Source: Pedosphaera sp.
GTDB lineage: Bacteria > Verrucomicrobiota > Verrucomicrobiia > Limisphaerales > UBA9464
Assembly: GCA_009695205.1 (NCBI GenBank)
Contig: SIBK01000009.1
Location: 4,964 to 68,963 of the forward strand
DNA: 64,000 nucleotides
Reading direction: 5' to 3'
Shown in pieces: positions 20,334-54,466 of this stretch (its first letter is position 1; each line of letters opens with the position of its first letter). The notes beneath the pieces were generated by a model. That model had not been told where the DNA came from, made no database searches, and worked only from the letters and a program-made list of their open reading frames with translations. The position numbers and the translations under genes were made by a program.

Positions 20334-20777
20334 TCATCCTGGCTGCGCACGTCCGGGACAGACCACTTTGAAACCAGCCTTGATGGCGGCCCTGACCTGC
20401 GCGTCGTCATGGGTCATCAGTCGCGAAATGCCCAATTCCTCCATCGCCGCCAAATGCAGTCGATCCAACGAACGGCAATGAATCCTTGCGGAAGCCCGAT
20501 GTTGGCGCAAGGCGGTTTGAAAGAGAGCCATCGGCAATTTCCGGAAGTCGAAAGGCGCCAAGGTTCGCATCAGTTCAAATCGGGCTTCGGCCTGACGGGC
20601 GTGCCTCCGGGAAAGGCGGCCTCCCGTCCAGGCGCCCTTCAGTTGCACCTGCATCTCAAGTTCCGCGAGAGAAGAGATTTGAACGGATTCCTCACCGTCG
20701 ATTGCCAACCATACCGCTTCACTCAAGGGCTCTGGACGGAGCACTTTCAAGAGGCAACTGGTATCGATGTAGATCAT
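20334..20777 (-). CDS. vapC: PIN-domain ribonuclease toxin (VapC family)
   Basis: 147-aa ORF starting MIYIDTSCLLK (first acidic residue). Further conserved acidic residues: SSLAELE and SLDRLHLAAM...THDD. It lies 4 bp downstream of a small antitoxin-like ORF. Confidence 0.85.
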   Translation of the reverse strand: MIYIDTSCLLKVLRPEPLSEAVWLAIDGEESVQISSLAELEMQVQLKGAWTGGRLSRRHARQAEARFELMRTLAPFDFRKLPMALFQTALRQHRASARIHCRSLDRLHLAAMEELGISRLMTHDDAQVRAAIKAGFKVVCPGRAQPG

Positions 20778-20781
20778 TCGC

Positions 20782-21042
20782 CTAGATCAGTGAACGCTCC
20801 GCTCGATCGGCTGCGAGTTCATCATCACTGCTAGAAAACACTCGGCCGCCGTAGACCTTTTTGATCCACTTCCGATGTTCCTCAGGATTCCAATGTTTGC
20901 GCTGGGCGGGTTGGATTTCGACGCGGACGAGTTTTGCAACGGGCTTGGAATCGCGCGTGATGAGGATCTCCGTCTCCAACTGCAAGGCCGCCTCAGCCTC
21001 CGGCCATCGTTGGCGTAGCGCCCGGATCGTCATCGTTTTCAT
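20782..21042 (-). CDS. Type II antitoxin (Phd/YefM- or VapB-like) partner of the PIN toxin
   Basis: 86-aa ORF directly upstream of vapC. The N-terminus MKTMTIRALRQRWPEAEAAL...ILITRDSKPVAKLV is typical of Phd/YefM-type antitoxins. Confidence 0.7.
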   Translation of the reverse strand: MKTMTIRALRQRWPEAEAALQLETEILITRDSKPVAKLVRVEIQPAQRKHWNPEEHRKWIKKVYGGRVFSSSDDELAADRAERSLI

Positions 21043-21258: not shown

Positions 21259-22781
21259 TTGACCGGAGTCAAAGGGAGGCGTTCTCTCTGGTGTCAGTGT
21301 GCGCTCAAGAAAGACAATCTTGTGATCACCCTCAGCCAGATAAGCCGGAAGAGTTTTGAAGCAGACAGCCCCTGTGGAATCGCACTCACGGCGCCGCCTG
21401 CGGGGGCGTCCGAGGCAACGTCGGTCGAACAGCAGTCCTGGATCCTCTCCCTGGATTATTCGTTGACCCGTCGCGCGCTGAGTTTAGCCATTGGAAGTCT
21501 GCTTCTCGCGGGTTGTTTTTCCCTGCTGCTGATCGTCTGGTTCTTCTCCTTTGCCGCGGCCCTTTATTCGTTATTGCCCGGAGAAAAGTCGGGCCATGCG
21601 ATGTTTCGCGCAGGCTTTGCCGTCGCGTGTGGCGGGGTGCTGACAATGGTTGCGGGAACCATGATTCCGGGCACTCGCCGGTGCTGGCCAACTACGTGCC
21701 GGTCATCGATAATCCGGTGTATATCACGGGTGTGGCGCTGTTCTTCGCTGGCCTGCTGCTGTGCTTCTTGAACGAGCGCTTGTTCGTCCGCTCGCTCGAT
21801 GCTTCTCAACAGGCCCCTCCTTCAGTCTGGGACCCGTTTCGGGTCACGCCGGATGTTGTGACGGCATTGAAGACCACTGCGCTGGCCTATCTCGTGGCGA
21901 TGACCACTTTTCTAGTATCGTGGGCGGCGACGCCACACGAATTGGAAGCTAAGGCCTACTATGAGCTCGTGTTCTGGGGCGGTGGGCATGTGCTGCAGGT
22001 GGCGAACGTGGCTGCAATGCTTGCGGTATGGCTATTGTTGCTCTCATCGCTATTGAAGTCCCCAGTTCTATCGGCCAAGACGGCGCAGGTGTTGTTTGCA
22101 CTCTTGCTCGCACCGCATCTGATTGGGCCCCTCCTCACCCTAAACGGAACGCTCACGTCGACGTATCGTCTCGGGTTCACAAGGCTGATGCAATTAGGCA
22201 TCGCTCCGGTGGTGGTGATTCTCTTAGGGATTTGCGTGCGACGCCTCCGGGCAGCATGGCGTGGTGGAGTCATTGGGAAGAAGAATTTGTACGACCCACG
22301 CCTGGTCGGATTTGTCGCGAGCGCGGCGCTAACGGTTACAGGCTTCCTGATGGGGTCGGCCATTCGTAATTCCAACACGATGATCCCAGCGCACTATCAT
22401 GCCTCCATCGGCGCGGTAACAGTCGCGTTCATGACCATCACCTATCTCCTGCTCAAGCCGCTCGGCTTCGTGCTGCCGGGAACGCGTCTGCCCAGGCTGA
22501 TACCCTGGCAGATCTGCCTCTTCGGCTTCGGTCAGGTGATTTTCGCCATCGGTTTTGGTCTAGGCGGCATGCACGGCCTGAGCCGCAAGGCTTATGGGGT
22601 CAAGCAACACATCCGGTCGATGGGCGAGGTGATCGGCCTTGGCGTGATGGGTGTGGGCGGACTCATCGCCGTTGCGGGCGGACTGTTGTTCCTGCTGCTG
22701 ATGATCTATGCGGGGCAATCCCGAATCCCGGTTGGCATTCCCCAACCTAAACTCGAATCCATGGCAAGGAGTAACGTATGA
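21259..22781 (+). pseudogene. Degenerate heme-copper oxidase subunit I paralog
   Basis: ORFs 21259-21771 and 21513-22781 join by a frameshift near 21670. The product is multi-TM and aligns by eye with the downstream subunit I: FWGGGHVLQVANVAAM vs WWGLGHMSQQVNVCAM; LAPHLIG vs SAHHLLV; IPAHYHAS vs IPGHFHVT. The segment corresponding to ...WFYRILTLHGLNML (low-spin heme His) is missing, and one CuB His is replaced (HH becomes PH). Confidence 0.6.
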
Positions 22782-22888
22782 GTGAACCAAACAAAAAGCA
22801 CCCGATACAGAAATTGATGGACAACACCTGGCTGTTGCTGGCGCTAGGCATTTTGATCCCGTTTCTTTCCTACACCGTGTGGGGTTGA
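22778..22888 (+). CDS. 36-aa single-TM peptide, possible small oxidase subunit (subunit IIa-like)
   Basis: Manual translation gives MSEPNKKHPIQKLMDNTWLLLALGILIPFLSYTVWG followed by a stop. Its ATG overlaps the upstream stop (ATGA at 22778-22781). It is too short for the ORF track. The position before subunit II mirrors ba3-type operons. Confidence 0.35.
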   Translation: MSEPNKKHPIQKLMDNTWLLLALGILIPFLSYTVWG

Positions 22889-22945
22889 ATCGAGATCCTG
22901 CTGGTCAAACCGGCGACTCTTCCGTGAAAGCCAACCTGAGGATCC

Positions 22946-23500
22946 ATGATGAGTCAACCTTCTCGCAGCAGCATTGAATGTCCGGCGCCGGATTGGTTCA
23001 AGGTGCCCACTGGCAACGAGCGGATCTGGATCGGCCTCGCCCTCTGTTGGTGCATGGTTATGTCCCTGATGATGCCCTACTGGCACTTCAAGGGAAAACA
23101 GAACAGCTCCGGTGAATCCTATTCGGTGAAGCCCGCTGATTTCACAAAACGCACGGAGAAATTCATCCTGGCGAATACAGGTGCCGAGTCACTTCTGGAA
23201 GAAGGCCTCGCCCCAATCGTCCCCGCGCCGCCAGGCGATGTCTATTTGATTGCCAAACAATATTTCTGGTTCCCGATCCTCAAGCTGCGCGCAGGAGAAG
23301 TCTACCGGTTGCACATTTCTTCGGTCGATTTTCAACACGGCTTTTCGCTACAGCCCATAAACATGAACTTCCAGGTCGTGCCGGGCTTTGATCACGTTCT
23401 CACCATCACGCCCCAGGCGCCGGGTACCTACCCGATTGTCTGCAACGAATTCTGCGGCATCGGGCACCAGAATATGGTCGGTAAAATCATTGTTGAGTAA
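22946..23500 (+). CDS. Heme-copper oxidase subunit II, cupredoxin domain with CuA site
   Basis: 184-aa ORF with one N-terminal TM helix. CuA ligand pattern: H in FQHGF, then CNEFCGIGHQNM (C-x-E-x-C-x3-H-x2-M). Confidence 0.85.
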   Translation: MMSQPSRSSIECPAPDWFKVPTGNERIWIGLALCWCMVMSLMMPYWHFKGKQNSSGESYSVKPADFTKRTEKFILANTGAESLLEEGLAPIVPAPPGDVYLIAKQYFWFPILKLRAGEVYRLHISSVDFQHGFSLQPINMNFQVVPGFDHVLTITPQAPGTYPIVCNEFCGIGHQNMVGKIIVE

Positions 23501-23513
23501 GGAGAAACACCCC

Positions 23514-25241
23514 ATGAGTAACAATACAAATGGAAAACGGATTTGCGCAACCACCGGCCTGCCAATCTGCCTGGATGCCGAGTTCTTCATCAAATGCAAC
23601 GCCGTGCTCGGCATCGTGTTTCTCCTGATTGGCGGCATCGGCGCCCTTCTGCTGGCACTCACCCGGTGGCAAACCGTCCATCTCCTGCCCGTCGATTGGT
23701 TCTATCGCATACTGACGCTGCACGGGTTGAACATGCTAATTTTTTCGATCCTGTTCTATGAAGTGGCGATTCTCTATTTCGTCTCCACATCCCTGCTCAA
23801 TGCCAAGTTGGCTTCCGTCAAGACTGCATGGGTCTCCCTCATCATGATGGCCGTCGGCGCCGTGATGGTGGACGGGACGATCCTCGTGGGGCAAGCCGAC
23901 GTCATGATGACCTCCTATCTGCCGTTGCTGGCGCACCCGGCGTTTTATCTTGGCATCATTTTCGTAGCCGTAGGAACGCTCATCGCCGTAATCAATTACT
24001 TCGCCACACTCTACAAGGCCAAGAAGGAGAAGACCTATCAAGGCTCGGTCCCGCTGGTCGTCTTCGGGGCGACCGCTGCTGCGATTATTGCGGTGGTGAC
24101 TTTGTTGCATGGCGCGATCGTCATGATTCCGACGTTCCTATACTCGATGGGATGGATTGCGCAGCCCGATCCGATCTGGTATCGAATGACCTGGTGGGGC
24201 CTGGGCCACATGTCGCAGCAGGTCAACGTCTGCGCGATGGTCTCGGTGTGGTACCTGTTGGCGACACTCACCACGGGTGCGAAACCACTCAATGAAACAG
24301 TCTGCCGCGGCGCGTTCCTGCTCTACATCTTCTTCATCAATCTTGCTTCCGCCCATCATTTGCTCGTCGATCCGGCAATCAGTGCGGGTTGAAAGATATG
24401 GAACACCTCCTACGCGATGTATCTGGCGGTGCTGGCGTCGATGATCCACGGCTTCACGGTGCCCGCATCGGTGGAAGTGGCGATGCGTCATAACGGCTAC
24501 GTGAAAGGTTTGTTTGGCTGGCTCACAGGCGCACCGTGGCGGAACCCTGGTTTTTCCGCGTTCGTCCTTTCGCTTGTGATCTTCGGCTTTGGCGGCGGCA
24601 TCACCGGCGGCACGCTGGGCGCGCAGCAAATCAACATTATCGCCCACAACACACTGCGAATTCCCGGCCATTTTCATGTTACGGTGGTCGGCGGAACGAC
24701 GTTGGCGTTCATGGGGCTCGCTTTCTATGTGGTGCCGCTTTTGTTTCAACGGGAGTACATCTTCAAACCATTGGCGCGACTGCAGCCCTACCTTTTCGGA
24801 ATTGGCATTACGATTATGGCGATGGGCATGTCGTTCGCGGGCTCGATGGGAGTTGCTCGGCGGAGTTGGGATATCGAGGCCACCGGGTCAATCTACGGCT
24901 CGACGGCGCACTTGTTCCTCGCCTTGGTCGGCATTGGCGGCGTGTTGGCCTTCCTCGGTCTGCTGCTGTTCATTCTGTTGACCGTGGGCAGCCTGCTCTT
25001 CGGACGGTCCTGCGTCGGCAGGTCGATGGAAAGCTGGGGCACGCCTAAACCGCTCGGGCGAGAGGAACAGGAGCACGCGCCGGCCGGCACGCCCCGTGGC
25101 TCCGGCGCTCCCGCTATGGCGCTGGTGGAAGCGCACCCCACCCAAGGAACGATGACGCTCGCGATCGTCTTTCTTATGAGCTTCGCTGTCTATTACTTCG
25201 CCAACTGGAAAGCGCTGGCCGACGTCTGGCCGGTGCGGTAA
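23514..25241 (+). pseudogene. Heme-copper oxidase subunit I, B-family-like but without the cross-link Tyr; interrupted by one in-frame TGA
   Basis: ATG at 23514 preceded by AAGGAG. ORFs 23388-24392 and 24417-25241 are in the same frame, separated by TGA at 24390-24392. Motifs: LTLHG (heme b His); WWGLGHMSQQV (CuB His at 24207-24209, with Gln rather than Tyr at +4); SAHHLL (24354-24359); PGHFHV (24669-24677). GLFGWLTGAPWRNPGF resembles ba3 enzymes. Confidence 0.8.
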
Positions 25242-25272
25242 GGGAGATGTTGGCGGCGATGGAGACGCACCC

Positions 25273-26226
25273 ATGAACAGCATCCGTACAGCGCAGCCGG
25301 TGGACCGGTTCATTTCGGGGGCATCGGGATTCCTCTCGGGCGGTCGTTTTCCGGCCTTTGCGATCTGTGCGCTCGTTTTCTATCAGGTCTTCATCGCCGT
25401 GATGGCGTTCGTGCCGCCCACGGGCGGGGCGTGGGGTGACTTCCTCCAAGACTTTCGGATGCGCTGTTTCAAATTTGATCCAAAGAGTGGGTGGATGGAG
25501 ATGAGCCCGGTGTGGGTCCTGTTGAGCGAGCCGCTGCCGCTTCTGGCCATGTTCTATTTCATCTGGCGCACACCGCTGCATGAGTTGTCGGAGACGCGTC
25601 GCCGGGCATTCGCGCAGGCGGCTTGTTGTGCGCTGCTGTTGGTGAGTCTGATTGGCTTCAGCCTGATGGGATTGGGCCGCTCGCAGGCCACCTCAACCGA
25701 ACTTCCGTTCCCTGCCGTCAACTTGCGCAGCGCGCTGGTGATGCCGTCGTTCACACTCACCAACCAGGAGGGTCACGCCGTCTCGCTCGCCGACTTCAAG
25801 GGCCGCGTCGTGCTAGTCACCGCCGTCTATTCCACGTGCACCACCACCTGCCCGATGATGCTGACGAAAGTGCGCGCGGTCCTGGATCAGTTGACTCCTG
25901 CCGAGCACAACGACATGGCGGTGGTGGCGTTCTCGCTCAACCCGGAAGCCGACACTCTCGAATTGGGTGGCATGATCGCGAAAAGCTATGGAATGAAAGC
26001 GGAGTTCCATTTCGTGAATGGCGTTCCGTCCGAGGTAAATGCGGTGCTCGACACGCTGAATGTCGCACGCACGCGCGACGAGAAGAGCGGCCAGATTATG
26101 CACTCGAACCTTTTCTTCCTCCTCGACCGTGAAGGCCGCATCGCCTACCGCCTCTCCCTAAGCCAGAACGAAGCATCATGGCTCATCTCCGCCCTGCGCG
26201 TGCTATTGGTGGAAAAGTCGTCCTAA
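25273..26226 (+). CDS. SCO1/SenC family copper chaperone (thioredoxin fold) with an extended multi-TM N-terminus
   Basis: 317-aa ORF. CxxxCP motif in VYSTCTTTCPMM, with a downstream His (IMHSNLFFLLD). About 130 N-terminal residues contain several hydrophobic helices. Confidence 0.85.
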   Translation: MNSIRTAQPVDRFISGASGFLSGGRFPAFAICALVFYQVFIAVMAFVPPTGGAWGDFLQDFRMRCFKFDPKSGWMEMSPVWVLLSEPLPLLAMFYFIWRTPLHELSETRRRAFAQAACCALLLVSLIGFSLMGLGRSQATSTELPFPAVNLRSALVMPSFTLTNQEGHAVSLADFKGRVVLVTAVYSTCTTTCPMMLTKVRAVLDQLTPAEHNDMAVVAFSLNPEADTLELGGMIAKSYGMKAEFHFVNGVPSEVNAVLDTLNVARTRDEKSGQIMHSNLFFLLDREGRIAYRLSLSQNEASWLISALRVLLVEKSS

Positions 26227-26249
26227 CAAAGGGCGAACCGAGACGCGTG

Positions 26250-28381
26250 ATGAACGACCACTCCAATCCCGAAGCGATTCCCCAGGAGGGAGAAACCCAT
26301 ACACTCCGCGTTCACGGCGGACGAACATCCAATTCCCCGCTGCCACCCTCTTCGCACGCTGAAGGTTTGCCGCGATGGCTGGAGAATGGCTGGCTCTACC
26401 TTGACCGGCTGATCCAGAACTTGATTCCACCCGAGCTCAATCCCCTCAGTCAGCTCGGCGCGATGGCCAACACCTCCCTGATCATCGCCGTCCTCTCCAG
26501 CATCGCCCTGCTTATTTGGTACACGCCAAGCGTTCATCACGCCTACGAATCTTTGGAAACGATCCGACAGTCCTCGTGGCTGGGCAGCTCGACCGTTCGA
26601 TCCACCGCTATAGTTCCGATGGCTGCCTCTTCTTTGTCCTGCTGCACTCGCTGCGCATCGTCTGTCAGCGCCGATTCATCGGCCCCCGGTGGCTGGCCTG
26701 GACCACCGGTCTGCTGCTCCTCTCCCTGCTCTGGTTTATCGGGTGGACCGGCTACTGGCTAGTCTGGGACGTGCGGGGCCAACACGCCGCGCTCGGCACC
26801 GTGCGTTTTATCGATCGCCTGCCGATCTTTGCCGAACCGCTCTCCCGCTCCTTTCTCACGGACCAGAGTGTGCCCTCGCTGCTATTTTTCCTGATCTTTT
26901 TCGTTCATATGCTCGCGCCGCTTTCCATAGGCGTTGGCATCTGGATGCACCTGATGCGCGTGAACCGCGCGAAGTTTCTTGCCGGTCGCGTGATGGCGCT
27001 CTGGATAATGGGCTCCCTCGTGGTGCTCTCCCTGGTGCGCCCGGCATTCAGCGCCAGTCCTGCGCTCATGAACGTCAAGGCGCTGGAGTTCAACATCGAC
27101 GGGTGGTATCTCTGGCCGTTCGTTCTCACAAACCGGCTGAGCGGCGGATTACTCTGGTCGGTCTTCCTCGTAACAGGGATCGCGGCGCTCAGCGTGCCCT
27201 AGTGGATTGCGAAACGTCGGATCGAGCCGCAATGGAAGGGGCAGGTGGATTTACCACGCTGCATGGGTTGCACTCTCTGAGCACAGGATTGTCCGTTCAA
27301 CGCCATCACCATGGCGCCGCGCGAAGACGGGAGGAAATTCACCGTTCAATCCGCCGTGAACCCCGACCTGTGCGTGAGCTGCGGCATCTGCACCGGTTCG
27401 TGTGATTCACAGGCGATTAACATGCCCGGACTGAATAGCCGTGAGGTGGAGAAACGGCTGCACGTCTGGATCGATTCGCAAAAGTCCCGCAGTTTGAAAC
27501 CATTCGTGGCTTTTTGCTGTGCCGAGTCATCGAGTGCCGTGCTCCGCGCCGACGCCGACGGCAGCTCAGCCGAGTTGCCGGGCTACGTCGTACAAACGAT
27601 TCCATGCGTTGGCTGGGTCAGCGCCGTGATTCTCGAACGAACGTTGCAGCGCGGCGCCGGCGGAGTGCTCGTCGTCGGCTGCGGTGAAGGGGACCCGGTG
27701 GCGCACGAGGGGATGAAATGGTTTGAACAACGCATGAGGGGCCGGCGGGAGCCGAGGTTCGATCCCGCCAAGGCCGATCCATCGCGCGTGCGGTTTGCGC
27801 AATTTGATCGCACGCGCCGCGCTGAGCTGTTGAAGGTAGCTCGAGAATTCCAGCAGCAATCGACGGCGATGCCCGGCAACATGCCGCGCAGGAGACTCTT
27901 GCAGATCGCCGCCGCCATCGCGCTGTGCATGGGCTTGATCACGGTGATCTTCGCACTCAGCAACCTGCCCTACCGAACCCCTCATTCGTCCCAACCGGAG
28001 TTGGTCGTCTCGTTCAACCACAGCGGCGCCATCTTAAACGCACGCAAACTGACTAAGGAAGAACTGGCCAAGCGCCTGCCCCACATGCGCGCCCAGGTTA
28101 ACGTCACTCGCCAACGCACGCCGGTGCGCCTCCGCGTGCACGTGAACGGCCAGATTGTATTCGACCAATCCTTCCAGCCCAAGGGGCTCTCGAAGGACGG
28201 CCCGAGCATCGCCGTCGTGCGCCTGCCGGTGAGCCTCGGCCCGCACCCAGTGCGGGTCGAGTTGGCCGACACCGCCGACCCCAATGTGTGGACCAAGCAG
28301 TGGAGCGAAACGGTGAGCTTCGAGAGCAATCGAACCCGGGTGGTTTTGTTCGACACAAAGGCGGGGTTCTCGCCGCATTAG
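26250..28381 (+). pseudogene. Fusion protein: di-heme cytochrome b (N-terminal domain) + 2x[4Fe-4S] ferredoxin + MvhD/FlpD-like domain + TM + beta-rich C-terminus; disrupted
   Basis: ORFs 26178-26762, 26516-27202 and 27311-28381. Cytochrome b has two His pairs, each spaced by 14 residues (IHRYSSDGCLFFVLLH and VHMLAPLSIGVGIWMH). Ferredoxin motifs are CMGCTL*AQDCP and CVSCGICTGSCD. The MvhD-like region reads FVAFCCAE...IPCVGWVSAVILERTLQRGAGGVLVVGCGEGD. Lesions: frameshift at ~26583; in-frame TAG 27200-27202; in-frame TGA 27278-27280, at the third Cys position of the first cluster motif. Confidence 0.7.
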
Positions 28382-38992: not shown

Positions 38993-40483
38993 ATGAACTG
39001 CAACGACCCTCTTTTTCTCAGCCTTGACCGCGAGAGCCGGCAGGCGGTCACGCGCCGCACCTTCCTGCAACGGTCCGCATCGGGCATCGGGCTCGCCGCG
39101 CTCGGCTCCTTGCTGAGCGGATCCGCCGCTGCCGAAGCCGTGCAAGGACGGTCAAATGCCGAGGTCGGACTGCCTGGTTTCCCGAACTCAACCCCCAAGG
39201 CGAAACGAATCATCTACCTCTTCCAGTCGGGCGCTCCGTCACAGATGGATCTCTTCGACCCCAAACCATTCCTCGCAAACCGCCGCGCTGAAAACCTCCC
39301 GAACTCGATTCGCCAGGGACAGAGGCTTACGACGATGACTTCGGGACAGACAACCTTCCCGGTCGCGCCGAGCATTTTCAAGTTTGACCAGCATGGGAAG
39401 AGCGGCGCGTGGTTGAGTGAACTAATGCCGAACATGGCGAAGGTCGCCGACGACCTCTGCATCGTGCGATCGGTGTTCACCGAGGCGATCAACCATGATC
39501 CCGCCATCACGTTCATCCAGACCGGCTCCCAGCTTCCCGGTCGACCCAGCATCGGCTCATGGCTCAGCTACGGTCTCGGGAGTGAAAACAAGGACCTTCC
39601 TGCCTATGTCGTTCTCACCTCCTTTGGCACGGGGCGCCGGGATGACCAACCGCTCTATGATCGCCTCTGGGGCTCCGGCTTTCTCCCCTCCAAGCATCAA
39701 GGCGTCAAGTTTCGCAATAGCGGCGATCCCGTTCTTTATCTATCAAATCCCCCCGGCGTGGACTCCGGAACACGCCGGGAGACGTTGGACGAAATTAGCG
39801 CGCTCAATCGCCGTCACTTCGATGTCCTCGGTGATCCCGAGATTTCGACCCGTATTTCACAATACGAAATGGCTTTTCGAATGCAATCGAGCGTGCCGGA
39901 TCTCACGGACATCTCAAAGGAGCCCCAAAGCGTTCTGGATCTCTACGGTCCTGAAGTCAGAAAGCCCGGAACCTACGCGGCAAACTGCCTGCTGGCACGC
40001 CGGCTCGCACAGCGCGACGTCCGATTCATTCAACTTTTTCACATGGGCTGGGATCACCATGGTGGCCTGCCCAAAGCTATCAAGGGCCAGTGCAGCGATA
40101 CCGATCAACCCACCGCGGGTCTCATCCAAGACCTCAAACAGCTCGGTCTACTTGAGGACACGCTCCTCGTCTGGGGCGGAGAGTTCGGCCGCACCATTTA
40201 CTCGCAAGGCACCCTCACCCAGGACGACTACGGACGCGATCATCACCCGCGCTGTTTTACCATCCTTCTTGCAGGCGCCGGTGTCAAAGCAGGCACGACC
40301 TTCGGGGAAACGGACGATTACTGTTATAACATCGTCCGCGATCCAGTCCACGTTCACGACCTAAACGCGACCGTGCTCCATCTCCTCGGCATCGAACACA
40401 CCCGGCTTACGTTTCGATTTCAAGGACGCGACTTCCGGCTAACGGACATTCACGGCGCCCGAGTCGAGGGTCTGCTCGCGTGA
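38993..40483 (+). CDS. DUF1501 (sulfatase-fold) protein, TAT-exported partner of the PSCyt/PSD protein
   Basis: 496-aa ORF starting 4 bp after the previous stop. Twin-arginine signal ([19 protein letters not shown]). Typical DUF1501 blocks: [36 protein letters not shown]. Confidence 0.9.
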
Positions 40484-40653
40484 CACGCTACGCGCGAACT
40501 TCCCCCCTGCGGGAGCCTTCCCTGCAGTAGTGTGTTGCGTTGCCCTGAGGTGGGCTCCGAGATCAATTTCCGCACAGGGATCCGTGGGAGTGCAAAGCAA
40601 TCGCAGAAGCGAATAAAGCCCTTGCCTTGAAGTGATTTGACAGGTCGTAACTT

Positions 40654-41796
40654 ATGAACACATCGACCCTGTGTGCTACACCTGCCCGCGTATCGGGACT
40701 CTGAATTGGCGCCCACGATCAAGGACGTGTTGTAACATGCGAGGTACCTGAACCGCGTGTATTTCGGCATCTGCAGACAATACCATGCGGAGAATGGCTT
40801 TAACATATTGAGTGAATTTAAAGAGACTTCCAGGTTCAAGATAATCGATGTGTTATATACGGATTCACAGAATTTGGCGTGGGCCAGGGCTCAAATCAAT
40901 GAAACGCTATTGTCGGATGAGGATTATATATTTTAATTGGACTCTCACCATCGCTTTGATAAAGACTGGGTCGTGACTTTAATTGGAATGCATCAACAAT
41001 TGGAACGGAAGGCCTACAAGCTGCTTATATCGGCATACCTACCATCGTATACACCGTTAAATGACCCGGAAGGTAGAGCCGTGCGCCATGGCAGCAGCAA
41101 TTCGCCTGCTTTTATTCCTATGAAACAATCTATATAACGCCTGCAACATTGATTGACTGGGAAACACTTACCGAACCCGTTCCGTCCAGATTTTTATCGG
41201 GTCACTTCTGCTTTGCCAGGAGTAAATGGGCAAGAACCATAAGACATGATCCTGACATTTATTTCAGCCGTGAGGAAATTAATCTGACTGTTAGATCATT
41301 TACTCACGAGTATGACATGTTTCATCCACATAGGTTGGTTGCATGACATTCAACGATGAGAAAGGAAAGGAGTGAAATGTTAAAATGGGACGATGACGCA
41401 AGGAGGGGCATCCAATGGTGGGTCAAGCAGGATTACGTCCGAAAGAAAATTAGAACTTCGTTTAAAACAGAATCCAACCCCGGGATAGACTTCCGTGAGC
41501 ATGATTTGGGCACGGTAAGGGCATTCGCTGATTATGAAGCCTATGCAGGAGTTAACTTTAAGGAGAGCGCCGTCCAACAATATACCCTGGATAACCACTA
41601 TCCACCCAATCCGAGTGACAGCCCCGGGTTCAAATCATATTATTGTTTTGTGTCAATAGAAAGGAGGAAACTGCCGGGAGATGATTATAAATCGATCGAT
41701 ATTTTTTTTCTTGATCCGGATGGAATCGAAGTATTTTGCAGAACGTTTCAAGAAATGGACTTGCAGCAATTTGTAGAAGGAAGCGGGCCTCTTTAG
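40654..41796 (+). pseudogene. Decayed glycosyltransferase (GlcNAc-transferase-like family), mostly within a low-GC island (from ~40780)
   Basis: Manual translation across ORFs 40937-41137, 41149-41346 and 41356-41796 plus upstream sequence gives AYRDSELAPTIKDVL*HARYLNRVYFGICRQYH...IIDVLYTDSQNLAWARAQI...DYIF*LDSHHRFDKDW...SRFLSGHFCFARSKW...HPHRLVA*HSTMRKERSEMLKWDDD. Lesions: in-frame TAA 40733-40735; TAA 40934-40936; TGA 41344-41346; frameshifts near 40660 and 41140. Family recognition is by eye only. Confidence 0.5.
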
Positions 41797-41977
41797 TATG
41801 AGGAATATTTTCCGCATAACACCAAGGCGCCGGTTAGATTGGTGGCTTTGGCGTACGGTGACGCAAGGGGAAAGGCGGATAAAGTCGAACAGGGCATTTC
41901 AGCCGATGGCGAGATGGAGTTAGATCTATAGAAAGGTCGTTGACGCGCCTTTACCCCCATTTTTCAACAGCCCGCAC

Positions 41978-42727
41978 CTACGCAATCCGCATCGTCAGTC
42001 CACCGTCGATCGTGAATGTCTCGCCCGTAAGATAGTCATTCTTCACCAGTTCGAGAATGACACTCGCCACCTGCTCCGGCGTGCCTTCGCGATGCAACGG
42101 GATGCGCTGGTCGAGGTTCAACGCGCGCTGCGCGGCTGTCATCGTGGCGTGAAAATCCGTCCGCACCACCCCCGGTGCGACACAGTTCACACGAATGTTG
42201 TCGTCGGCAAACTCCCGCGCCAGCGCCCGGGTGAACTGCGGGATCGCCCCCTTTGCCACCTGATACGCAACGTTGGTGACCACGCCGCGGATGCCCGCGG
42301 TGGAGGAGATCAATACGATGGCGCCTTCGCGCTTCAGTTTCAGGTGCGGGATGACCGCCCTGCAAAGATAAAAGATCGCGTGCACATGGGTGTCGAAGGC
42401 CCCGTGCCACTGCTCAGGCGTGATTTCGAACAGTTTCCCATTCACTGGGCCGCCGGCGGAATGCACCAGCACATCGACGCCGCCAAACTTGGCCAACGTC
42501 TCCGCTACGAGCCGCGTCGCCTCGGCGTGTATCGCGCAATCTGCGAGAATCAGTTCGCAGCGCCGGCCCAGCGCCTCGATGCCGTGCTTCACCGACAGCG
42601 CACCAGCATCGTTGCGGCGACCGTTGATGACGACATCGGCACCTGCTTGCGCGAGCGCCAGGGCCGTGGCGGCGCCTATGCCTTTGGTGCCACCCGTGAC
42701 GAGAGCGATCTTACCTTCGAGTTTCAT
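41978..42727 (-). CDS. Short-chain dehydrogenase/reductase (FabG-like SDR)
   Basis: 249-aa ORF with TGGTKGIGAA (cofactor motif), NSAG-like HSAGG, and the catalytic YQVAKGA (YxxxK). Confidence 0.9.
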   Translation of the reverse strand: MKLEGKIALVTGGTKGIGAATALALAQAGADVVINGRRNDAGALSVKHGIEALGRRCELILADCAIHAEATRLVAETLAKFGGVDVLVHSAGGPVNGKLFEITPEQWHGAFDTHVHAIFYLCRAVIPHLKLKREGAIVLISSTAGIRGVVTNVAYQVAKGAIPQFTRALAREFADDNIRVNCVAPGVVRTDFHATMTAAQRALNLDQRIPLHREGTPEQVASVILELVKNDYLTGETFTIDGGLTMRIA

Positions 42728-43018: not shown

Positions 43019-44372
43019 TCACATTAGGAAATCCAGGTTGGAGGCCCACCCGCTGCCGAAATCGGCGAGGTTACCAAACACGGACGTCAGTTCGGCATCC
43101 GGAACACCCATCCATTTGGCAAGGGCCGCGCCGAATTGCTCCGTCGAAGTCGTCGGAATGATCGCACTTCGGTTGCCGCTGTCGTCGTCGCCGCCGAGCG
43201 CAAGGCTTGGGAAGGTGCCATAGACGTGGCTACCCTTAACCGCGCCGCCCATCAAGAGGAGGTGGCTGTCCCAACCGTGATCGCAGCCTGAACCGCTCGG
43301 TTGCAAGGGTCTTCCGAAGTCAGAGAAGGTGAAACTCGTCACGCCGTCCGCGACACCTAGTTCTTCATCCGTTGTCTTATAGAAAGCGGCCATCGCCTCG
43401 GCCACATCCTTGAGTAGATCCCAGTGCTGCCAACTTTGCGAACTGTAGATATCAAAGCCGCCGAGCGTGCAGAAGAATACCTGCCGCCGAATACCCGTTA
43501 CCCCCCGCATCTTGATGATCTTCGCCACCTGCTGGAGCTGGTCGCTGAGGCTGCCGCCAGGGAAAGGCGTCGTAATGGTGGCCGAACCTCCCCGCAGCAG
43601 CGCGTTCAAGTCGAGCGCGTCCTTGCGGACCGTGTTCGCTGCCTGCACGAGAGCCAGTCCACTATCGAATTCCAGCACCTGTTGGAGGCCGGTTTTGCGG
43701 GCGAGCGCAGCTGAGGCCGGCCACAGGCTCATACCGCTCACGTCGAGATCGAACCCAGGCAGCAGGCTGGCTGATTGAACGATGTTACCTGTGCAAAACA
43801 GCGCCGCGCCGTTCGTGGAAATCGCAGCTGGAAAGGTGGAGCTCCGTTCATCAAGTGCAGGGCATCCGCCGCGCGTGCGCCCCAACCCGTGCCGCCCGAG
43901 CTCGAGGGAACGCCCGTTTGCATCTGCTGGATCTGGTCCGAGTGCGAGAAGAGGTTCGTGGGCACCGGCACGCTATTCCCAGGAATTGCGTGCGCGTGAT
44001 CGGCTTCACCAACATGCCGACGTTGCCGAGGACAGCGAGTTTGCTCTGAGCCCAAAGGGAATGTACTGCCGTCAGACCGGGATTCAGTCCGTACGGAATG
44101 GCGTTCAGCGTTTCGACGGGCAGGAGAGCGCCGTTGCCATCGGGCAATGTGAGCGAGGCACGGCCGGCCTTGTAGGCGTTAAACTCAGACTGCGTGAGCG
44201 GAACGATGGTATTGTGGCCGTCGTTGCCGCCAACGAGAAAGATGCAGACGAGCGCCTTGTAGTCGGGCGGAGTGCTCTGCGCGAGGGCGTTCATCCAGCC
44301 GAAGCGGGATAGGCGGGTGGTGGCACCGAGGCCGCGAAGCATACTGCGCCGGCTCAAACGGAAATGGATCAT
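43019..44372 (-). pseudogene. DUF1501 protein, frameshifted twice
   Basis: ORFs 43851-44372 (TAT-like start, LVCIFLVGGNDGHN), 43738-44055 (NLFSHSDQIQQMQTG) and 43019-43885 (TLGGFDIYSSQ..., GSGCDHGW) are three frames of one DUF1501 gene, with joins near 44000 and 43860. The usual GGFDTH block reads GGFDIY. Confidence 0.8.
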
Positions 44373-44411
44373 GATGAGGGTCTTTCTAAGTTGAAGTGGA
44401 AGTGGAGCCGA

Positions 44412-47283
44412 TTAGTGCTGGACGGCGTATTGACCGCTCAAGGCGGTGAGATAGAGGATGGTTTCGATGCGGGTCGTGACGTCATACCCGGGCGCCGCTG
44501 CATCGATGAGAACTTGCTTCATCCCGGCTGGCATACGTCCGTAAAGCAGGCGTTGGTTTACGAGTTCCACAAGTTCGGGCATGTCGTTGCCGAGGGCCTG
44601 GAAGGGAGACAGATCGATTGTGAAGTCGCTCCCAGGATTGCCGAGGATGTAGTGGAACAGATTGCCGCGAAGCGTCCCTTCGGTGGGCGAATATATCTGG
44701 AATTCCGGTCCGAACAACGGGCTCTTCGGGACGCGGTAGAGTGGCGAGAACCAACTGAACACGGACAACGGATTGAGTGGAGACTGCGCCATGTAGCTAT
44801 AGAGATAGGTCAGTTGCTCCGATATGCTAAACTGTCCGTTCAACGCCCGCAGGAAGCCGGAGATATGAAGAATCGGCTCCTTGAGACGGCCAGAATTCAC
44901 GGTCGGCGTATCGTTGCGTGCCTCGACGTCCGTGAGGATCGCAGTGACAACGGCTTGCAGGTTCCCACTGGTGCTACTAAAATCTGAGCCACCCGTTGTA
45001 CGAACCCGGGGCTAGGATTGCTCATCACGAGGCTGCGAATCAGCCGCGCGGCAATAAATGGCGCGGTGTTGGGGTGATTCATCACAATGTCCAGAAAGCT
45101 TTCCAAATCCTGCTCGACGGACTGCCCGGCGGGAACCGTGACTCCGAGTATCGTCTTGGCCACCGTGGAATGGTTTTCCGGCCGTGTTTCCATTGGCGGA
45201 CCGTGGTATTCGTTGTTGTGACTGCGAGGCGTGGCGCCCGGAGCGGTTGCGTAAGTCCAACCAGTGAGGGCGAGCGCAACTTGAGCTACCGTATATTGAT
45301 CGTAGGTCGGAATCGCAAAGCCGTTCGCATCGGTCAACAACGTTCCATCGGAGTTCAATCGCCAGAGGCCAATCGTGAAAAGCTGCATCGCCTCGCGGGG
45401 AAAATTCTCGTTTGCCCCCCTGATGCCGGGTTTGCTCGAGTTTGCCAAGTCTAGGAATTTGCCCATCGAGGAACTCCTCGCAACATCCCGCAACAAATCC
45501 TTGTAGTTTCCAAAGGCTTGCTGACTGAGGATGTTCATCCATGGAAGCATGGCGTCCGCGTAGATCTGCTTGTTGGTTGATATGACCACGATCTGGCTTA
45601 GGGCATATATGACCCGCTGGCGAAGCTGGTCGGGCGCAGCCGTATAGTTGTAGAGTGTCCACTTTTGCAGGGCGCCGACGGAATTGTCTGCGGGTGTCGG
45701 AATGACCGAGGCCGGAAGGGAAAACTGCTGCTGAAGATATCCGTCAATGCCCAACTGCTGCACCTCGGCGAGACTCGCCGTCGCCGGGCCAAAGCAGGAC
45801 TGCTCCAGGAACCGCGCCGCGGCGAGCAGTCCGGCATAATCGATCGCAGGCGTCAGGGTAACCGTCGCATCGGCTGAAGAATTTGGGTCCGCGACTGTGG
45901 TTGCCCGCACCGTGACCGTGGACGAACCCGGCATCGCCACCGGAGTGACATAAATACCGCTGCTGCTGATCGTGCCATTGGCAGAACCACCGACCACGTG
46001 ACCGCGGTGTTGGCACTGCCGGTGACCGTGGCGACAAATGCCTTGGTGTTGCCAATCCGCACGATGGCAGGAGTGGGTGCCACCGCTACGATCACCGGCG
46101 GCGGCAGTAGGGTCACTGTGGCGTTCGCGGACGTGAGTACATTCGCCACGGAAGTCGCCCGAACCGTCACGACCGCCACAGCTGGCAGGACGGCGGGAGC
46201 CGTGAAAACGCCGCCCGAGCTGATTGTGCCGTTGCCCGAACCGCCGATCACCGACCATGTCACGGCAGTGTTGGGGCTGCCGGTAACCGTGGCGGTGAAT
46301 AACTTCGTGGTGCCGACCTGCACCGAAGCAACATTCGGCGTGACGGCAACCGTCACCGAAGGCGGTTGGGTGAGCGTCACCGTGGAATTAGCAAAAATCG
46401 ACGAAATGGCGCCAGAAGTCGCGCAGACGGTGACCGTCGCCGAAGCCGACATCAAAGCGGGCGCGGTATATATGCCACCCGACGTTATTGAACCGTTGAC
46501 CGAGCCGCCTACCACCGACCACGTCACCGCTGTGTTTGCATTGCCCGTGACGGTTGCCGTGAAAGCCCGTGAACTGCCGAGCTGTACTGTGGCGGTGGTG
46601 GGCGCAACCGCAACCGTCAGCGTCACTACGGTCACTGGCACAGAAACGCTGTTACCGGTAACCGCGCCCGGGCCCGGCTGACGCACGGTGAACAGGATCG
46701 TGCCGACGGCAGCAGCGTTTTCGGTGGCGACCAGTTTTGTTTTGGAAAAGTAAGTGGTCGGGAGATCCACGCCGTTCGCTTGCGCCTTCGAATCTGGCGC
46801 GAAGTTGTTGCCATTGAAACTTACGGAGTAATTGCCAACCTGCAGTGTCGAGGGTGAAACGCTCCAAAGCCACGAATACGGTCGAATTACGGTCAGGGTC
46901 GTCGTCTTGAATGAGGACGGGTAGGCCGTGCTCTGAGCCTTAATCGTCAGGCCACTGTTTGCTGGCGCCTTGGCGGGGGCCTGATACAGGCCGGCGGGAC
47001 TGATCGTGCCGCAGGTGGCATCGCCGCCCAATTTGTTGTTCACCCACCATGTGATCGTGTTCGGTGTGATCGGCACGTAGGCGCCGAACTGCTTTGTTGT
47101 GCCGATTTCCACCGTACTATTCGCGGGCCAAACATCCATAGAGCCAGACACCTGCGCCCAGAGTGAGTTTCCTCCGAACGCGCAGATCGCGAGTGCCATC
47201 CACGCCAGCATCGACCGGAGCGGCTTCCGTCCGGAAAGGGGGTTGGTCATGGAACCGTGAGTCAGCGAAAAGAGGAAGTTCAT
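44412..47283 (-). pseudogene. Signal peptide + Big_2-type Ig-like repeats + DUF1800 protein, frameshifted
   Basis: ORFs 45853-47316, 44897-46258 and 44412-44900. There are three ~90-aa Ig-like repeats (FTATVTG..NTAVTWSV.GGS.NG.I.S.G.Y.AP), then DUF1800 (FLEQSCFGPA, ENFPREAMQLFTIG, NPSPGFVQRVAQI, GRLKEPILHISGFLRAL). Frameshifts lie at ~45985-45995 and in the A4 run 44979-44982. The probable start is the ATG at 47283. Confidence 0.8.
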
Positions 47284-50598: not shown

Positions 50599-53500
50599 TC
50601 AATTTAACGAAAGGTTCACGCGGCTTTCACCCCGGTAGGCCGCGTCCACCGGCTTCGGTGCGACGAGAAAAAGCCGGTTGGCAGCGACCGGCCCGTTTTG
50701 GAGAAACCAGTCCTGAACCCACCGCTCACGAGTCGTCATCAATTCGCGAAACTCTTCGCGGGTCACCGGGATATTCCGGGTGAGAAGCTCCTCCATGAGT
50801 TCCGGCGTCGCCAACCCCAGCGCCTCCTGGTCGGCTTTGGTGAGACTTTTTTCGGCGGGCTTCTTGTGGCGGGTTCCGCTGAAGATGCCGGTCATTCGTG
50901 CGAGAAGAGGGCGTTTCGGCTGGGAAGCACTCTTGCTGGCTGCAAGAGGTTGCTGGTTGGTGGTGATGAGGGGCGGAAGATTGGTTTGGAGGATTGCAGC
51001 GATGTTGGTGCCAAACTGCTCAACGAAGGCGGCCCGCATGAGGCGGTCACGTTCCTCGGGGTTGGATCTGAAAATTTTCAAGGGAGACGGCTGGACGACC
51101 GCCTTTCGCGCTGAGTTCCTGAAGCCGCCTGGCCTTGAGTTGATCGCTCAGTTTTTGCTGCGCGAGAGCGGCACGATCCCGAATTGGGTCCACCGCGGCT
51201 TCGATCTCGAGGTTGAGCGACGGGCCCTTCGCCAACGCTGCGGTGAGTTTGCCGAGTTTGCCCACCTCACCGTCGACGAGGTTCGTGGCGCCGGGCTGGA
51301 ACTCGATGAAGCTCAGTTCATCGCCCCCGCCGCCAACCAGCGAGCCGAGCAGCTTGAACGGCGAGGTGGCGGCCTTGATGATAATGTTTACAACGACCTT
51401 GAGGATGATGGGGCCGAGGCTGAATTTCGGATCATCCAGTCGCCCGCTCAGCGGCACATCGAGTTGGATGCGCCCCTCGCTGTCCTTGAGCAACGCCACG
51501 CCGAGTTTTAACGGCAGGCTCGTGGCGTCCGGGCTGGTGTTACGCTGCCCGAGCGTGAGTTGATCAATCTGAATTTTGTTTTCCGCCCGGAGCGCCTTTC
51601 CTTCGATGCGGTAATGGAGGCTAGAGCTTACCCGGCCCTTCTTCAGCGGAAACCCCCCAATATTTCTCCAAATAGCCGGTCAGCGAGGTGAGCTGCGTGT
51701 TCGCGTTCGTGATGGCGAGGTCCACAAACAGAGCGGCTGCAAAGGGATTCACGCGCCCCGTGACGGCGAAGGGCGACTGGACGTCCACTCGGCCATGCAG
51801 GTCCACATCGGCAGGGGAGCTTAAGTCAGAAGCAAGACCTTTGACAGTGCCGCTGAGTTCCTCAATGCCGAGCACGACGCGGGGTTGCACAGATTCGTCG
51901 GCAAAGGCCACGGAAGCTCGATCCAGGAACAACGTGCCCAACTTCATGGAAAACGGGTCGCTCAGGAAATTTGTCGCGCTCCCGCCCGCGAGCGGCGCAG
52001 CGGAATCGTTCGTTTGGAAGCGGACCTTGCCCGCCGTCGTCAACGCGCCGTTCACGATGCCGAGGGGCGCATCCCGATGTTGTTGGCGCGCGCAACTCGC
52101 ACTGCCCACGATTTGCCGATTTTTCAACTTTGCCAACACGTAGGTGATGCTCGGAGCACAGCTGCGGAGCAGCGGCAGAGAGTAGCCCATGGCGGGAGCC
52201 ATGGGACCGTATGCACGATAGGTCCAAGCCCCGCCAGGGGCGACAGAGAACGAGGACGGCAACCCGTTGCGCAAATCTCTGTCGCCCCTCCGGGGCTTGA
52301 GAGCGTGCGTGTCGAGACCCACGACTGGTGCCGTGGGCGACTTTCCGGCGTCGCTCCGCGCCTTAAGAATGCACGTGTGCCAACAACTTCAGAATGCGCC
52401 CGATGCCGAGCGAAACGAACGGCTCGACATACGGCTGCGCCGCGCGAAGGTCCAGATTGGTGACAGCGACATCGAGATCGGCAAAGAGTGGTTCGATCAT
52501 CGCGGTGCCTTGTGCGGAGAAGGTGCCTGATTCGTTCAAGCGGAAAGCTATATTGGCGCGGATGGGTGTGTTGGTGACAGAACTCGCGCCTTTCAAGTTC
52601 AGCGCAACCTTGTCGAGCAGGAAGATGGCAGGCTTGGGCGGTATCAGGTCCTCGACTTTGAACGTATAATTGTCGAGCTGGATCTCATCGACGTTCAAAG
52701 TCCAGACCCAGGGCATAGGTTGAAGCGTTTGTCATCTTGCCTTCGGGCGACCCCGACGGCTCTAAATTGGATTTGATAGGCGCAGCAGCGTTTGTTCGCG
52801 AAACTGCCAGCAGACCCAGCAGGTTGATCGCACCGTCTTTATGGCGACGGATCACTACCGAGCCCCCATCGCCCTTGAACAAGCCCACCCGCCCCCGTCG
52901 ATCCTCCAGGCTGACCTCAACCCGCTCGAAGCCGATCTCTGTGACACGGGTCACCGTCTCGGAGTTCTCCGGCAAGTTCACTTCAAGATCGGTGAGTTTC
53001 ACGCCGAGATTGGTCACGCCCGCCAGCAGGCTGTTCATGCCCAGTGCAAACCGATAAGGCACACGAACCTCGACTTTCCCAGACAAAATCCTGCCTCGGA
53101 AAAAGTCCTCGGCGTACGGCAGGTATTTTTTAACATCCACGGTGCTGATCGTCACTTCGCCCGTGGAACGGATTGGGTTGATGGACACCGTGCCTTCTCC
53201 CGCAAAAACCTCCGCCACTTCGCTCAACATGCGGAAGGAATAGCGGGCATCGGAGTTTGTCCGGGTGGTAAAGTGTTTCAGGCTAACCTCGATCGGTTTC
53301 AATTCCATCTTGAACGGAGTGCGCCGCGTCAAGTCCTCGAAGGTCACCATCGCTTGTTCAATCGAAAAATCGTCCACCGAAACACTCAACGGGGGCAGCG
53401 CGGGAAGCGTGAGCAGGACGTCGATCAGGTTCAGGGTGCCGTTTTTCCGAACTCGTGAGACCAAGGCTGCTTCGGTCACTTCGACGCTCCCGAGGCGGAT

Positions 53501-54460
53501 GGCGAGAGAGCGCAGGTCAAACTCGGCCCGCTGAACGTCGAGGCCGCGCAGTTGAGTAACGATTTCGGCCGAAGCCGGATCGAAGACCTGCAACTGAGCC
53601 ACTTGGACCGCTCCGTTGGTGACGGTGAGGTCGAATCCGTTGGTACCCGCCGCGAAGCGATAGAAGAACTGCACGTCCGCCAGGCCATTCGTGATCAACG
53701 TGCTGGTGAACTCTTCGATATACGGCTAGTAACGGCTGAGTTTGACGCCCGTGACTTCGAGATGACCGGAGGACCGCAGCGGCTGGATCGAGAGATCGCC
53801 AGCCCAGGCGATGCTGCGTCCGGTGTCGCTTTCGGCACGAAACAAGTACGGGGTGTCCGAATTGAGGTGGGTGGTGAATTCGGTGAGATCAAAGTTGATG
53901 GGCCGATACTCGGTGCGGAAGACCGAACGGCGCGTGCGATCTTCCAAGGCGACGAACCCGTTGGTTATTTCAAGGCGGAAGATGTTGACGCGCGGGATGC
54001 TCGCCGGCCGGGAAGAACTCGGGAACGTATTCGCCTGGGCTTCCAACATGTTGGCGAAGTTCAGCCGACCGCCCTTCGACAAGATCACTTCGCCGAACGG
54101 TTTCACGATCCGAATTTCTTTAAATGTCCACGCCCAGCGGAAGAGCGACGAGGTCTGGAAGTTGACGTAAAGCTCGTCCCAGGAAGCGAACGGACGTCCA
54201 TCCGGTTCGGTGAGGGACAACCCGCGCACGGTGAGGGACAACGTCCACGGATTCACCTTTACTTGCTGCACGGAGGTCTGGCGCTTTGTGATCGCTGGCA
54301 GGCGCCGCACCATCTGCGATTGGATGATCGGCGGCAGGACAAAGAATCCCAACAGCGAGTAGAGAACGAATGCGCACGCGCACCATTTCAGCGCTCTGCG
54401 CACGCGAAGAGGAAGTTGATTGAGGAGTTCTGGCTTCATAAAACGAACCGGGTGCCTCAA
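50599..54460 (-). pseudogene. DUF748 (AsmA-like) large envelope protein, multiply disrupted including a MITE insertion
   Basis: ORFs 53726-54460, 52685-53698, 52363-52716, 51621-52322, 51047-51499 and 50599-51081 are consecutive pieces. The N-terminus is typical of DUF748 (FFVLPPIIQSQMVRRL...VKVNPWTLSLTVRGLSL...DELYVNFQTSSLFRWAW). Later blocks include LLKDSEGRIQLDVPLSGRLDDPKFS. Lesions: in-frame TAG 53726-53728; frameshift at ~52715; 336-bp insertion at 52065-52400; frameshift in the C6 run 51653-51658; frameshift at ~51085-51100. Confidence 0.85.
52065..52400. mobile_element. MITE-like element, family A, copy A2, inserted in the DUF748 gene
   Basis: Flanked by a perfect direct repeat, CGATGCCGAG, at 52055-52064 and 52401-52410. 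Ends are GGGCGCATCCCGATGTTGTTGGC and GCCAACAACTTCAGAATGCGCC, which form inverted repeats (19/22). Internal perfect hairpin at 52186-52205. No coding capacity for a transposase. Confidence 0.8.
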
Positions 54461-54466
54461 ACAGTT

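Follow-up and report, generated by a model that had tools for sequence, protein, structure and literature searches.

What does a heme-copper oxidase (HCO) operon encode when its catalytic subunit keeps the histidine ligands of an oxygen reductase but lacks the active-site tyrosine, and does such an operon still work in the genome that carries it? These questions are raised by a cluster of six gene elements on the plus strand (positions 21259-28381) of a 64,000-nucleotide stretch of DNA from Pedosphaera sp. (Verrucomicrobiota; assembly GCA_009695205.1, contig SIBK01000009.1). The whole stretch is referred to here as the window, and all coordinates are window positions. An earlier note, made from the letters of the sequence alone, had proposed that the cluster encodes either a nitric oxide (NO) reductase-type enzyme or a novel HCO. 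The first half of this proposal agrees with our analysis, given a glutamine that is diagnostic of eNOR and a clade whose members all lack the tyrosine. The second half does not, because the lineage is a named and biochemically characterised family, eNOR. The region is very probably the decayed remnant of an eNOR-type operon for NO reduction, and its host is a verrucomicrobium near subdivision 3.

Active site of subunit I

Both heme axial histidines and the three active-site histidines are retained in subunit I. The six canonical His ligands and the resemblance to ba3 enzymes that had been read by eye are borne out by alignment: the codon coordinates are exact, and H70, H232 (24207), H281/H282 (24354-24359), and H386/H388 (24669-24677) align to ba3 residues H72, H233, H282/H283, and H384/H386, respectively. 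The closest solved structures are the ba3-type enzymes of Thermus (1EHK/1XME) and Aquifex aeolicus (7DEG), at approximately 29% identity and E ~1e-41. Furthermore, the system shares with ba3 the CuA ligands of subunit II, a GLFGW..PW.NP.F motif, part of the K path (Y248, S309, and T315), and the gene order.

Several positions distinguish subunit I from ba3. In ba3 numbering, Gln replaces both Tyr237 and Val236, Asn replaces Trp239, Val replaces Tyr244, and His replaces Thr312. The sequence GH-M-S-Q-Q, in which the earlier note had found no tyrosine, aligns to GH-P-I-V-Y of ba3 both in the matches from the Protein Data Bank (PDB) and in a 52-sequence MAFFT alignment, which puts Gln236 at the position of Tyr237. 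Among the PDB entries, 4g71 is a variant ba3 that reads GHPINY at this motif. Gln is found at the Tyr site, four residues after the first CuB His, in all 24 members of the clade that we compared, and Q-Q occupies both motif positions in 11 of 11 homologs with 71-93% identity. The nearest homolog of subunit I is 94% identical.

Likewise, no substitute Tyr of the C-family type was found by sequence, in agreement with the earlier reading, since the relevant position in helix VII, six residues before the HH pair, is Ile275. An invariant Tyr271 is present in helix VII, but this residue also occurs in the Tyr-bearing sister sequences P0123 and P0127 and is therefore not a marker of Tyr-less enzymes. 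A B-family O2 reductase was ruled out on these residues: the His-Tyr cofactor (GHPxVY) is absent, with Gln236 at its site and Ile275 at the C-family substitute position. The K path of the Gln-bearing clade is similar to the K-type path of ba3, with S309 and Y248 in 24/24 members and T315 in 23/24, whereas T312 is replaced by His in 24/24 and position 261, a Ser in ba3, is Asn or Ser.

Placement in the eNOR family

According to a published key that follows Hemp & Gennis 2008, the Tyr site holds Tyr in O2 reductases, Glu in cNOR and qNOR, Asn in sNOR, and Gln in eNOR (PMC8756737, section 2.7.1, Table A4). By this key and by the sequence comparisons below, the system is a member of the known, characterised eNOR family and not a novel HCO. 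The eNOR purified from Rhodothermus marinus reduces NO and cannot reduce O2, and the family has been found in 547 GTDB genomes (PMC11214002, Table 1). The same study reports that S309 is conserved in eNOR and lost in sNOR, that CtaA homologs occur in many eNOR operons, although not in all, and that heme A(s) cofactors are among the biochemical properties of eNOR (PMC11214002). An eNOR was also reported earlier in a cultured verrucomicrobial isolate (PMC13274419).

Phylogenetic placement puts subunit I outside the ordinary B family. In a neighbour-joining tree, all 24 Gln-type sequences form one clade and the B family forms another, each in 200/200 bootstraps, and the window sequence nests with subdivision-3-like Verrucomicrobia, again in 200/200. 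With Gln236 at the site and a clade separate from the B family, subunit I is not an ordinary B-family enzyme whose Tyr was overlooked, and NO rather than O2 reduction would be expected of an intact copy. The all-Gln clade includes sequences from Verrucomicrobia, metagenome-assembled genomes (MAGs) of Rhodothermales, Myxococcota, Gemmatimonadota, proteobacteria, and one haloarchaeon (Natrarchaeobius). Identity between the window protein and bacterial members from other phyla, Rhodothermales included, is 54-75%, compared to 40% for the haloarchaeal member.

An exhaustive HMMER search over cluster representatives likewise revealed a compact family, below which identity drops to 42-49% and then to approximately 30% for ordinary B-family enzymes. 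The 42-49% group consists of the haloarchaeal Gln-type sequence P0126 and the Tyr-bearing sequences P0123, P0124, and P0127; another Tyr-bearing sequence, P0148, is at 33%. When one genome per GTDB species was examined in a motif-seeded scan, at least 592 species genomes were found to carry W-x-x-G-H-x-S/A-Q-Q. These belong to Rhodothermales, Balneolaceae, Myxococcota, Planctomycetota, Nitrospirae, Gemmatimonadota, Acidobacteria, Alpha- and Gammaproteobacteria, and many Verrucomicrobia. With at least 592 species genomes involved, a widespread NO reductase may be hidden and the potential for aerobic respiration overstated, a point shared by the authors of a study of eNOR in Ferrigenium.

The system thus matches the eNOR of R. 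marinus DSM 4252 (Hemp & Gennis 2008; Murali et al. 2024, PMC11214002) in the Gln at the Tyr site, the three-His metal site, the heme ligands, the derivation from the B family, the CuA subunit II gene immediately upstream, the K-type path with S309, and the occurrence in many phyla. It also resembles the Ferrigenium eNOR, whose operon includes SCO and cytochrome b/Fe-S genes. Unlike these, the window copy appears to be inactivated by seven lesions, and no CtaA homolog was seen nearby among the approximately 43 frames scanned.

Other Tyr-less families were considered as well. The sNOR of ammonia oxidisers (norSY-senC-orf1) is also B-family-derived and Tyr-less, with a CuA subunit II and a SenC/SCO gene, and it was considered on account of that last gene. 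However, sNOR has Asn at the site and no S309, whereas the window protein has Gln and S309 (PMC8756737, Table A4; PMC11214002), and SenC/SCO is not exclusive to sNOR. This family was therefore ruled out. cNOR and qNOR belong to the same superfamily, lack the cross-linked Tyr, and are like the window enzyme in that NO reduction is expected. They differ in having Glu at the site, a cytochrome c subunit or a fused quinol-oxidising domain in place of CuA, and no conserved cytoplasmic proton channel. They were ruled out by the Gln, the CuA subunit II, and the ba3-type closest structures, given the C-family kinship of cNOR and qNOR. Finally, gNOR has an active-site His replaced by Asp and a subunit II without CuA ligands, and was ruled out by the three His and the complete CuA site.

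The searches also returned two kinds of HCO subunits that lie outside the Gln clade. The nearest outgroups of eNOR, at 33-44% identity, are four Tyr-bearing GHxxQY sequences (P0123, P0124, P0127, and P0148), two of them from archaeal MAGs (Hodarchaeales (Asgard) and Thermoproteota) and two unattributed. They share GHxxQ-x-N (Gln235 and Asn238), His312, and S309 with eNOR, yet retain the Tyr and are presumably O2 reductases. Such sequences may record the stage that immediately preceded a change from O2 to NO reduction. They are probably the "K family" of O2 reductases that has been described as clustering next to eNOR (10.1101/592808). Two other proteins, P0265 and P0269, are B-family-like and are without a CuB ligand. 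At the first CuB His site one reads G-Q-A-L-G-Y and the other G-N-G-L-E-Y, and the latter has R-Q in place of H-H. Both have the appearance of HCO subunits that have degenerated or been repurposed.

Lesions in four of the six genes

All six elements of the cluster were located in the order proposed in the earlier note, and four of them are identified by Pfam (Table 1). Four of the six genes are damaged. The seven lesions comprise a 90-nucleotide (nt) deletion, two 1-nt deletions, three in-frame TGA codons, and one TAG codon, and each of the four nonsense codons lies at a conserved Trp or Cys codon. In contrast, homologs with 70-94% identity are full length. The TGA in subunit I at 24390 had already been noticed and read as Trp, and Trp is indeed present there in 11 of 11 aligned homologs. 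The damage to the small peptide, the paralog, and the cytochrome b fusion had been under-reported.

The frameshift in the paralog is also evident from a tblastn search with the homolog encoded by a related locus (L003), which matches residues 9-152 in frame 1 and residues 153-524 in frame 3. Furthermore, subunit I carries four private substitutions (W78S, V366G, T370A, and T493S) at alignment columns that are at least 98% conserved, whereas the median among 120 homologs is zero. This excess, judged from the alignment, is consistent with relaxed selection. The operon in this genome is probably pseudogenised and non-functional. These genes give no grounds for listing the organism among NO reducers or N2O producers, since its catalytic subunit ends prematurely at codon 293.

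Table 1. Gene elements of the eNOR-type operon and the lesions within them, in window positions
Feature	Position	Strand	Description	Evidence
HCO subunit-I-like paralog ("hcoP")	21259..22781	+	pseudogene	tblastn against L003, blastn against L005
Lesion 1 (paralog)	~21537/21538		90-nt in-frame deletion; removes conserved helix II His	blastn against L005
Lesion 2 (paralog)	21676		1-nt deletion	blastn against L005
Small membrane peptide	22778..22927	+	single helix	84% identity to L003 49-aa peptide across stop
Lesion 3 (small peptide)	22886-22888		TGA	Trp in relatives; translation ...YTVWG*IEILLVKPATLP*
eNOR subunit II	22946..23500	+	CuA cupredoxin; frame intact	Pfam COX2/Cupredoxin_1
eNOR subunit I	23514..25241	+	575 codons	PF00115, E = 1e-58 with in-frame TGA bridged
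Lesion 4 (subunit I)	24390-24392		TGA	codon of invariant Trp293
SCO1/SenC-type copper chaperone	25273..26226	+	frame intact	PF02630, E = 3.5e-23
Cytochrome b + 2x[4Fe-4S] + FlpD/MvhD fusion	26178..28381	+	pseudogene	Pfam on separate pieces
Lesion 5 (fusion)	~26590		1-nt deletion; one G lost from G run	inferred against L003 protein
Lesion 6 (fusion)	27200		TAG	Trp in relatives
Lesion 7 (fusion)	27278		TGA	third Cys of CxxCxxCxxxCP (first cluster motif)

Weighing the alternatives

Several points weigh against reading the region as a decayed eNOR operon. The tree was built by neighbour joining from corrected p-distances and not by maximum likelihood, and it contains no named eNOR reference, whether from R. 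marinus or from another species. Homolog searches seeded with proteins from a Rhodothermales MAG and from Alcaligenaceae (betaproteobacterial) returned no named Rhodothermus, Accumulibacter, or Gallionellaceae protein; they returned sequences from Balneolaceae, Fodinibius, "Bacteroidetes Order II", and Steroidobacteraceae. Since no named eNOR sequence was compared, the evidence for membership in the family is the diagnostic residue from the literature, the structure of the clade, and the distribution of its taxa. We infer NO reduction by the verrucomicrobial members from their sequences, and a Pfam scan of approximately 43 other reading frames in the window revealed no nir, nos, or CtaA/COX15 homolog. 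Finally, further genes in the window are broken (DUF1800, DUF1501, and DUF748), and thus the lesions may partly reflect assembly quality or the consensus of a mixed population.

This last point leads to the most serious competing explanation, which we nevertheless consider improbable: that the operon is functional, with lesions that arose as errors of assembly or consensus, or with TGA codons subject to readthrough or to recoding as Trp or selenocysteine. A single transition separates three of the four nonsense codons from TGG, and one of the two 1-nt deletions falls in a G run, which is typical of sequencing error. Yet it is unlikely that errors would create four stops exactly at conserved Trp or Cys codons within 7 kb and, in addition, a clean 90-nt deletion. 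Subunit II and SCO are intact and subunit I remains close to its nearest homolog, as would be expected of a working operon. The fragmented genes elsewhere could indicate an assembly of lower quality, but long neighbouring genes (878-1183 aa) and a second DUF1501 copy are uninterrupted. The lesions are thus restricted to a few loci, as expected of real pseudogenes and unlike random errors. Recoding of TGA fits poorly with a lesion that is TAG, with a TGA that replaces an Fe-S ligand Cys conserved in at least 95% of homologs, with the use of TGA as the stop codon of most ordinary genes in the window, and with the lack of a hairpin signal 3' of the TGA codons.

Two specific forms of recoding were examined. 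An alternative code (TGA as Trp or Gly) was ruled out because TGA, the commonest ordinary stop, terminates 42 of the 72 long (at least 200-codon) open frames listed in the window, along with ordinary genes. Pairs of open reading frames (ORFs) that follow one another in the same frame, namely 35810-38989/38990-40483 (PSCyt/DUF1553 and DUF1501) and 55288-55890/55891-57591 (prepilin-like and LeuA), are adjacent genes. Selenocysteine was ruled out because the three TGA sites hold Trp, Trp, and Cys codons in relatives, because one of the lesions is a TAG, and because the RNA 3' of these TGA codons shows no more structure than shuffled sequences do (z = -0.3 to -0.75).

A second explanation disputes the chemistry: the family, or its verrucomicrobial branch, would not primarily reduce NO and would instead be a high-affinity O2 reductase or catalyse another reaction. 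We regard this as quite unlikely. The three His that bind the metal do not differ from those of Cu-containing oxidases, and nir and nos genes were not found in the scanned parts of the window. However, enzymes of this superfamily need the cross-linked Tyr to reduce O2, and 24/24 clade members lack it. The DUF2249, HemN, CopD, cupin, and nitronate monooxygenase genes beside the operon in one relative are of a type that may be linked to NO or low-oxygen responses. The case of sNOR in Nitrosomonas shows that assignments of NO reductases by sequence can be contested (10.1101/765727), but the sole eNOR that has been purified reduces NO and not O2 (PMC11214002).

It is hardly credible that subunit I represents an unnamed HCO family that gained its Gln independently of eNOR: although no named reference is in the tree and convergent active sites are documented for sNOR with bNOR and for nNOR with cNOR (PMC11214002), the all-Gln clade is tight across the phyla and identities given above, eNOR was defined in haloarchaea and Rhodothermus, the count of at least 592 genomes matches the published one (PMC11214002, Table 1), and eNOR is on record in Verrucomicrobiota (PMC13274419).

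Conservation of the operon and its partner proteins

The identical six-gene order is found intact in Lacunisphaera contigs and in a close relative, and the neighbours of subunit I are conserved with it across many phyla. We quantified this in a census of 80 species-representative loci, in which denominators are the loci assessable for each gene. Subunit II is directly upstream of subunit I in 70/70 loci, the small peptide precedes subunit II in 63/70, and SCO is downstream of subunit I in 67/71. A cytochrome b-ferredoxin fusion is encoded within 4.5 kb in 62/67 loci (44 with the MvhD part), and an HCO-like paralog lies upstream in 32/60. The earlier note had called these partner proteins unusual for cNOR or qNOR, which is correct, yet they are standard for eNOR operons.

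Subunit II has one N-terminal membrane helix and a cupredoxin domain in which the CuA site is complete (His, Cys, Glu, Cys, His, and Met), including the previously reported CuA motif CNEFCGIGHQNM and an upstream His (DFQHGF). Its best PDB match is the Thermus ba3 CuA domain (E ~4e-15, with all ligands aligned), and it is 81% identical to the L003 counterpart. The small peptide is 49 aa long in relatives and 36 aa in the window copy, whose ATG (22778) overlaps the TGA stop of the paralog, so that the ATGA coupling described earlier is present. It has no match in a PDB sequence search. In ba3 operons, the order is small peptide (IIa), subunit II, and subunit I. Because of its size and this mirrored gene order, the peptide is probably the counterpart of ba3 subunit IIa. 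The SCO protein, with an N-terminal membrane region, a CxxxC motif, and a downstream His, is 73% identical to its L003 homolog over the full length.

The paralog had been described as a degenerate HCO subunit I. The window copy has no Pfam match; its intact L003 homolog (542 aa, 72% identity) matches PF00115 (COX1) over positions 4-418 of 436, which agrees with that description. Intact paralogs are 477-542 aa long. Across 40 homologs, the helix II His, one helix VI His, H-Y-H, and an Arg-Lys pair are conserved, and the CuB His-His pair is absent.

The fusion protein, which like SCO is backed by Pfam as proposed, is 709-760 aa long in relatives. Its domains follow the order di-heme cytochrome b membrane domain, 2x[4Fe-4S] ferredoxin, MvhD/FlpD, one membrane helix, and a C-terminal domain. 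Conservation among 41 fusion proteins is at least 95% for two H-x13-H pairs and for both CxxCxxCxxxC motifs, a pattern that points to two b hemes and two [4Fe-4S] clusters. As a best guess, the fusion would conduct electrons through the membrane and connect eNOR, or its maturation, with the quinone pool or with an Fe-S donor in the cytoplasm. More tentatively, the fusion and the paralog might form a dedicated electron-input or bifurcating/confurcating module, or a supercomplex, and eNOR would then not be a simple two-subunit enzyme fed by cytochrome c. If so, NO reduction would be tied to the quinone pool or to cytoplasmic Fe-S carriers.

Previous descriptions of such partners are few. The main eNOR paper mentions only CtaA as an operon partner (PMC11214002). 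For Ferrigenium, an eNOR operon with sco1 and a pair of cytochrome b/Fe-S genes was reported, and this pair was called "rather unusual" (10.64898/2026.01.22.701106). In contrast, our census indicates that cytochrome b/Fe-S fusions are the rule in eNOR loci. As far as could be found, this near-universal linkage of eNOR and fusion has not been described in the literature. The consistency with which the cytochrome b fusion (nearly all loci) and the CuB-less paralog (about half) accompany eNOR is only mildly new. Their co-occurrence does raise a testable question regarding the electron route to a possibly energy-conserving NO reductase.

Some relatives encode further genes around the operon. A Lacunisphaera locus, L001 (1-7300 and 12900-14400), has flanking genes for DUF2249, HemN, DAO/amine-oxidase-like, CopD, cupin, PNPOx-like, and nitronate monooxygenase proteins. 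In Opitutaceae, eNOR may be surrounded by a wider regulon for NO, copper, and heme. In the close relative L003, the genes directly upstream of the operon encode a second SCO and a DUF2249 protein, neither of which is detectable in the window.

Proposed working of the intact operon

In an intact copy, electrons from a periplasmic donor would enter at the CuA centre of subunit II, as its conserved ligands suggest. From CuA they would pass to the low-spin heme (H70/H388) and on to the binuclear site, with ligands assigned by alignment. This site would consist of the high-spin heme (H386) and a metal, Fe or Cu, held by H232, H281, and H282 beside Gln236. By analogy with the R. marinus enzyme, the expected reaction is 2 NO + 2 e- + 2 H+ -> N2O + H2O, and the cross-linked Tyr needed for O2 reduction would be absent from the site.

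Protons would probably be taken up from the cytoplasm via a ba3-like K-type path that keeps S309, Y247, and T315 and has H312 and N260 at the other two positions. Uptake from this side would make the reaction electrogenic, as the literature proposes. SCO probably loads the copper. In this genome, the seven lesions in four of the six genes would inactivate the operon, including its catalytic subunit.

Other features of the window

Directly upstream of the operon, on the minus strand (20334-21042), are a PIN-domain toxin gene (20334-20777) and a small gene upstream of it (20782-21042), which are probably a VapBC-type pair.

Two damaged loci were seen further downstream, both on the minus strand. 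A DUF1800/DUF1501 pair is fragmented at 43019-46258. DUF1800 lies in two frames (44897-46258 and 44412-44900), and DUF1501 apparently lies in three. Pfam recognises only the C-terminal piece of DUF1501 (43019-43885); the pieces at 43851-44372 and 43738-44055 were recognised by eye, on the basis of motifs and a Tat-like signal. This damage is specific to the locus, because the second DUF1501 gene (38993-40483) is full length. The DUF748 gene at 51621-54466 is broken into four or more fragments, with matches to profile positions 13-231, 149-347, 453-553, and 653-772 of 1037. It has an in-frame TAG (53726-53728) and frame shifts among the later pieces, and is a pseudogene or a damaged gene.

Finally, the region at 40001-42000, between the DUF1501 and SDR genes, contains only short ORFs and has a G+C content of 0.495, compared to 0.55-0.61 elsewhere.

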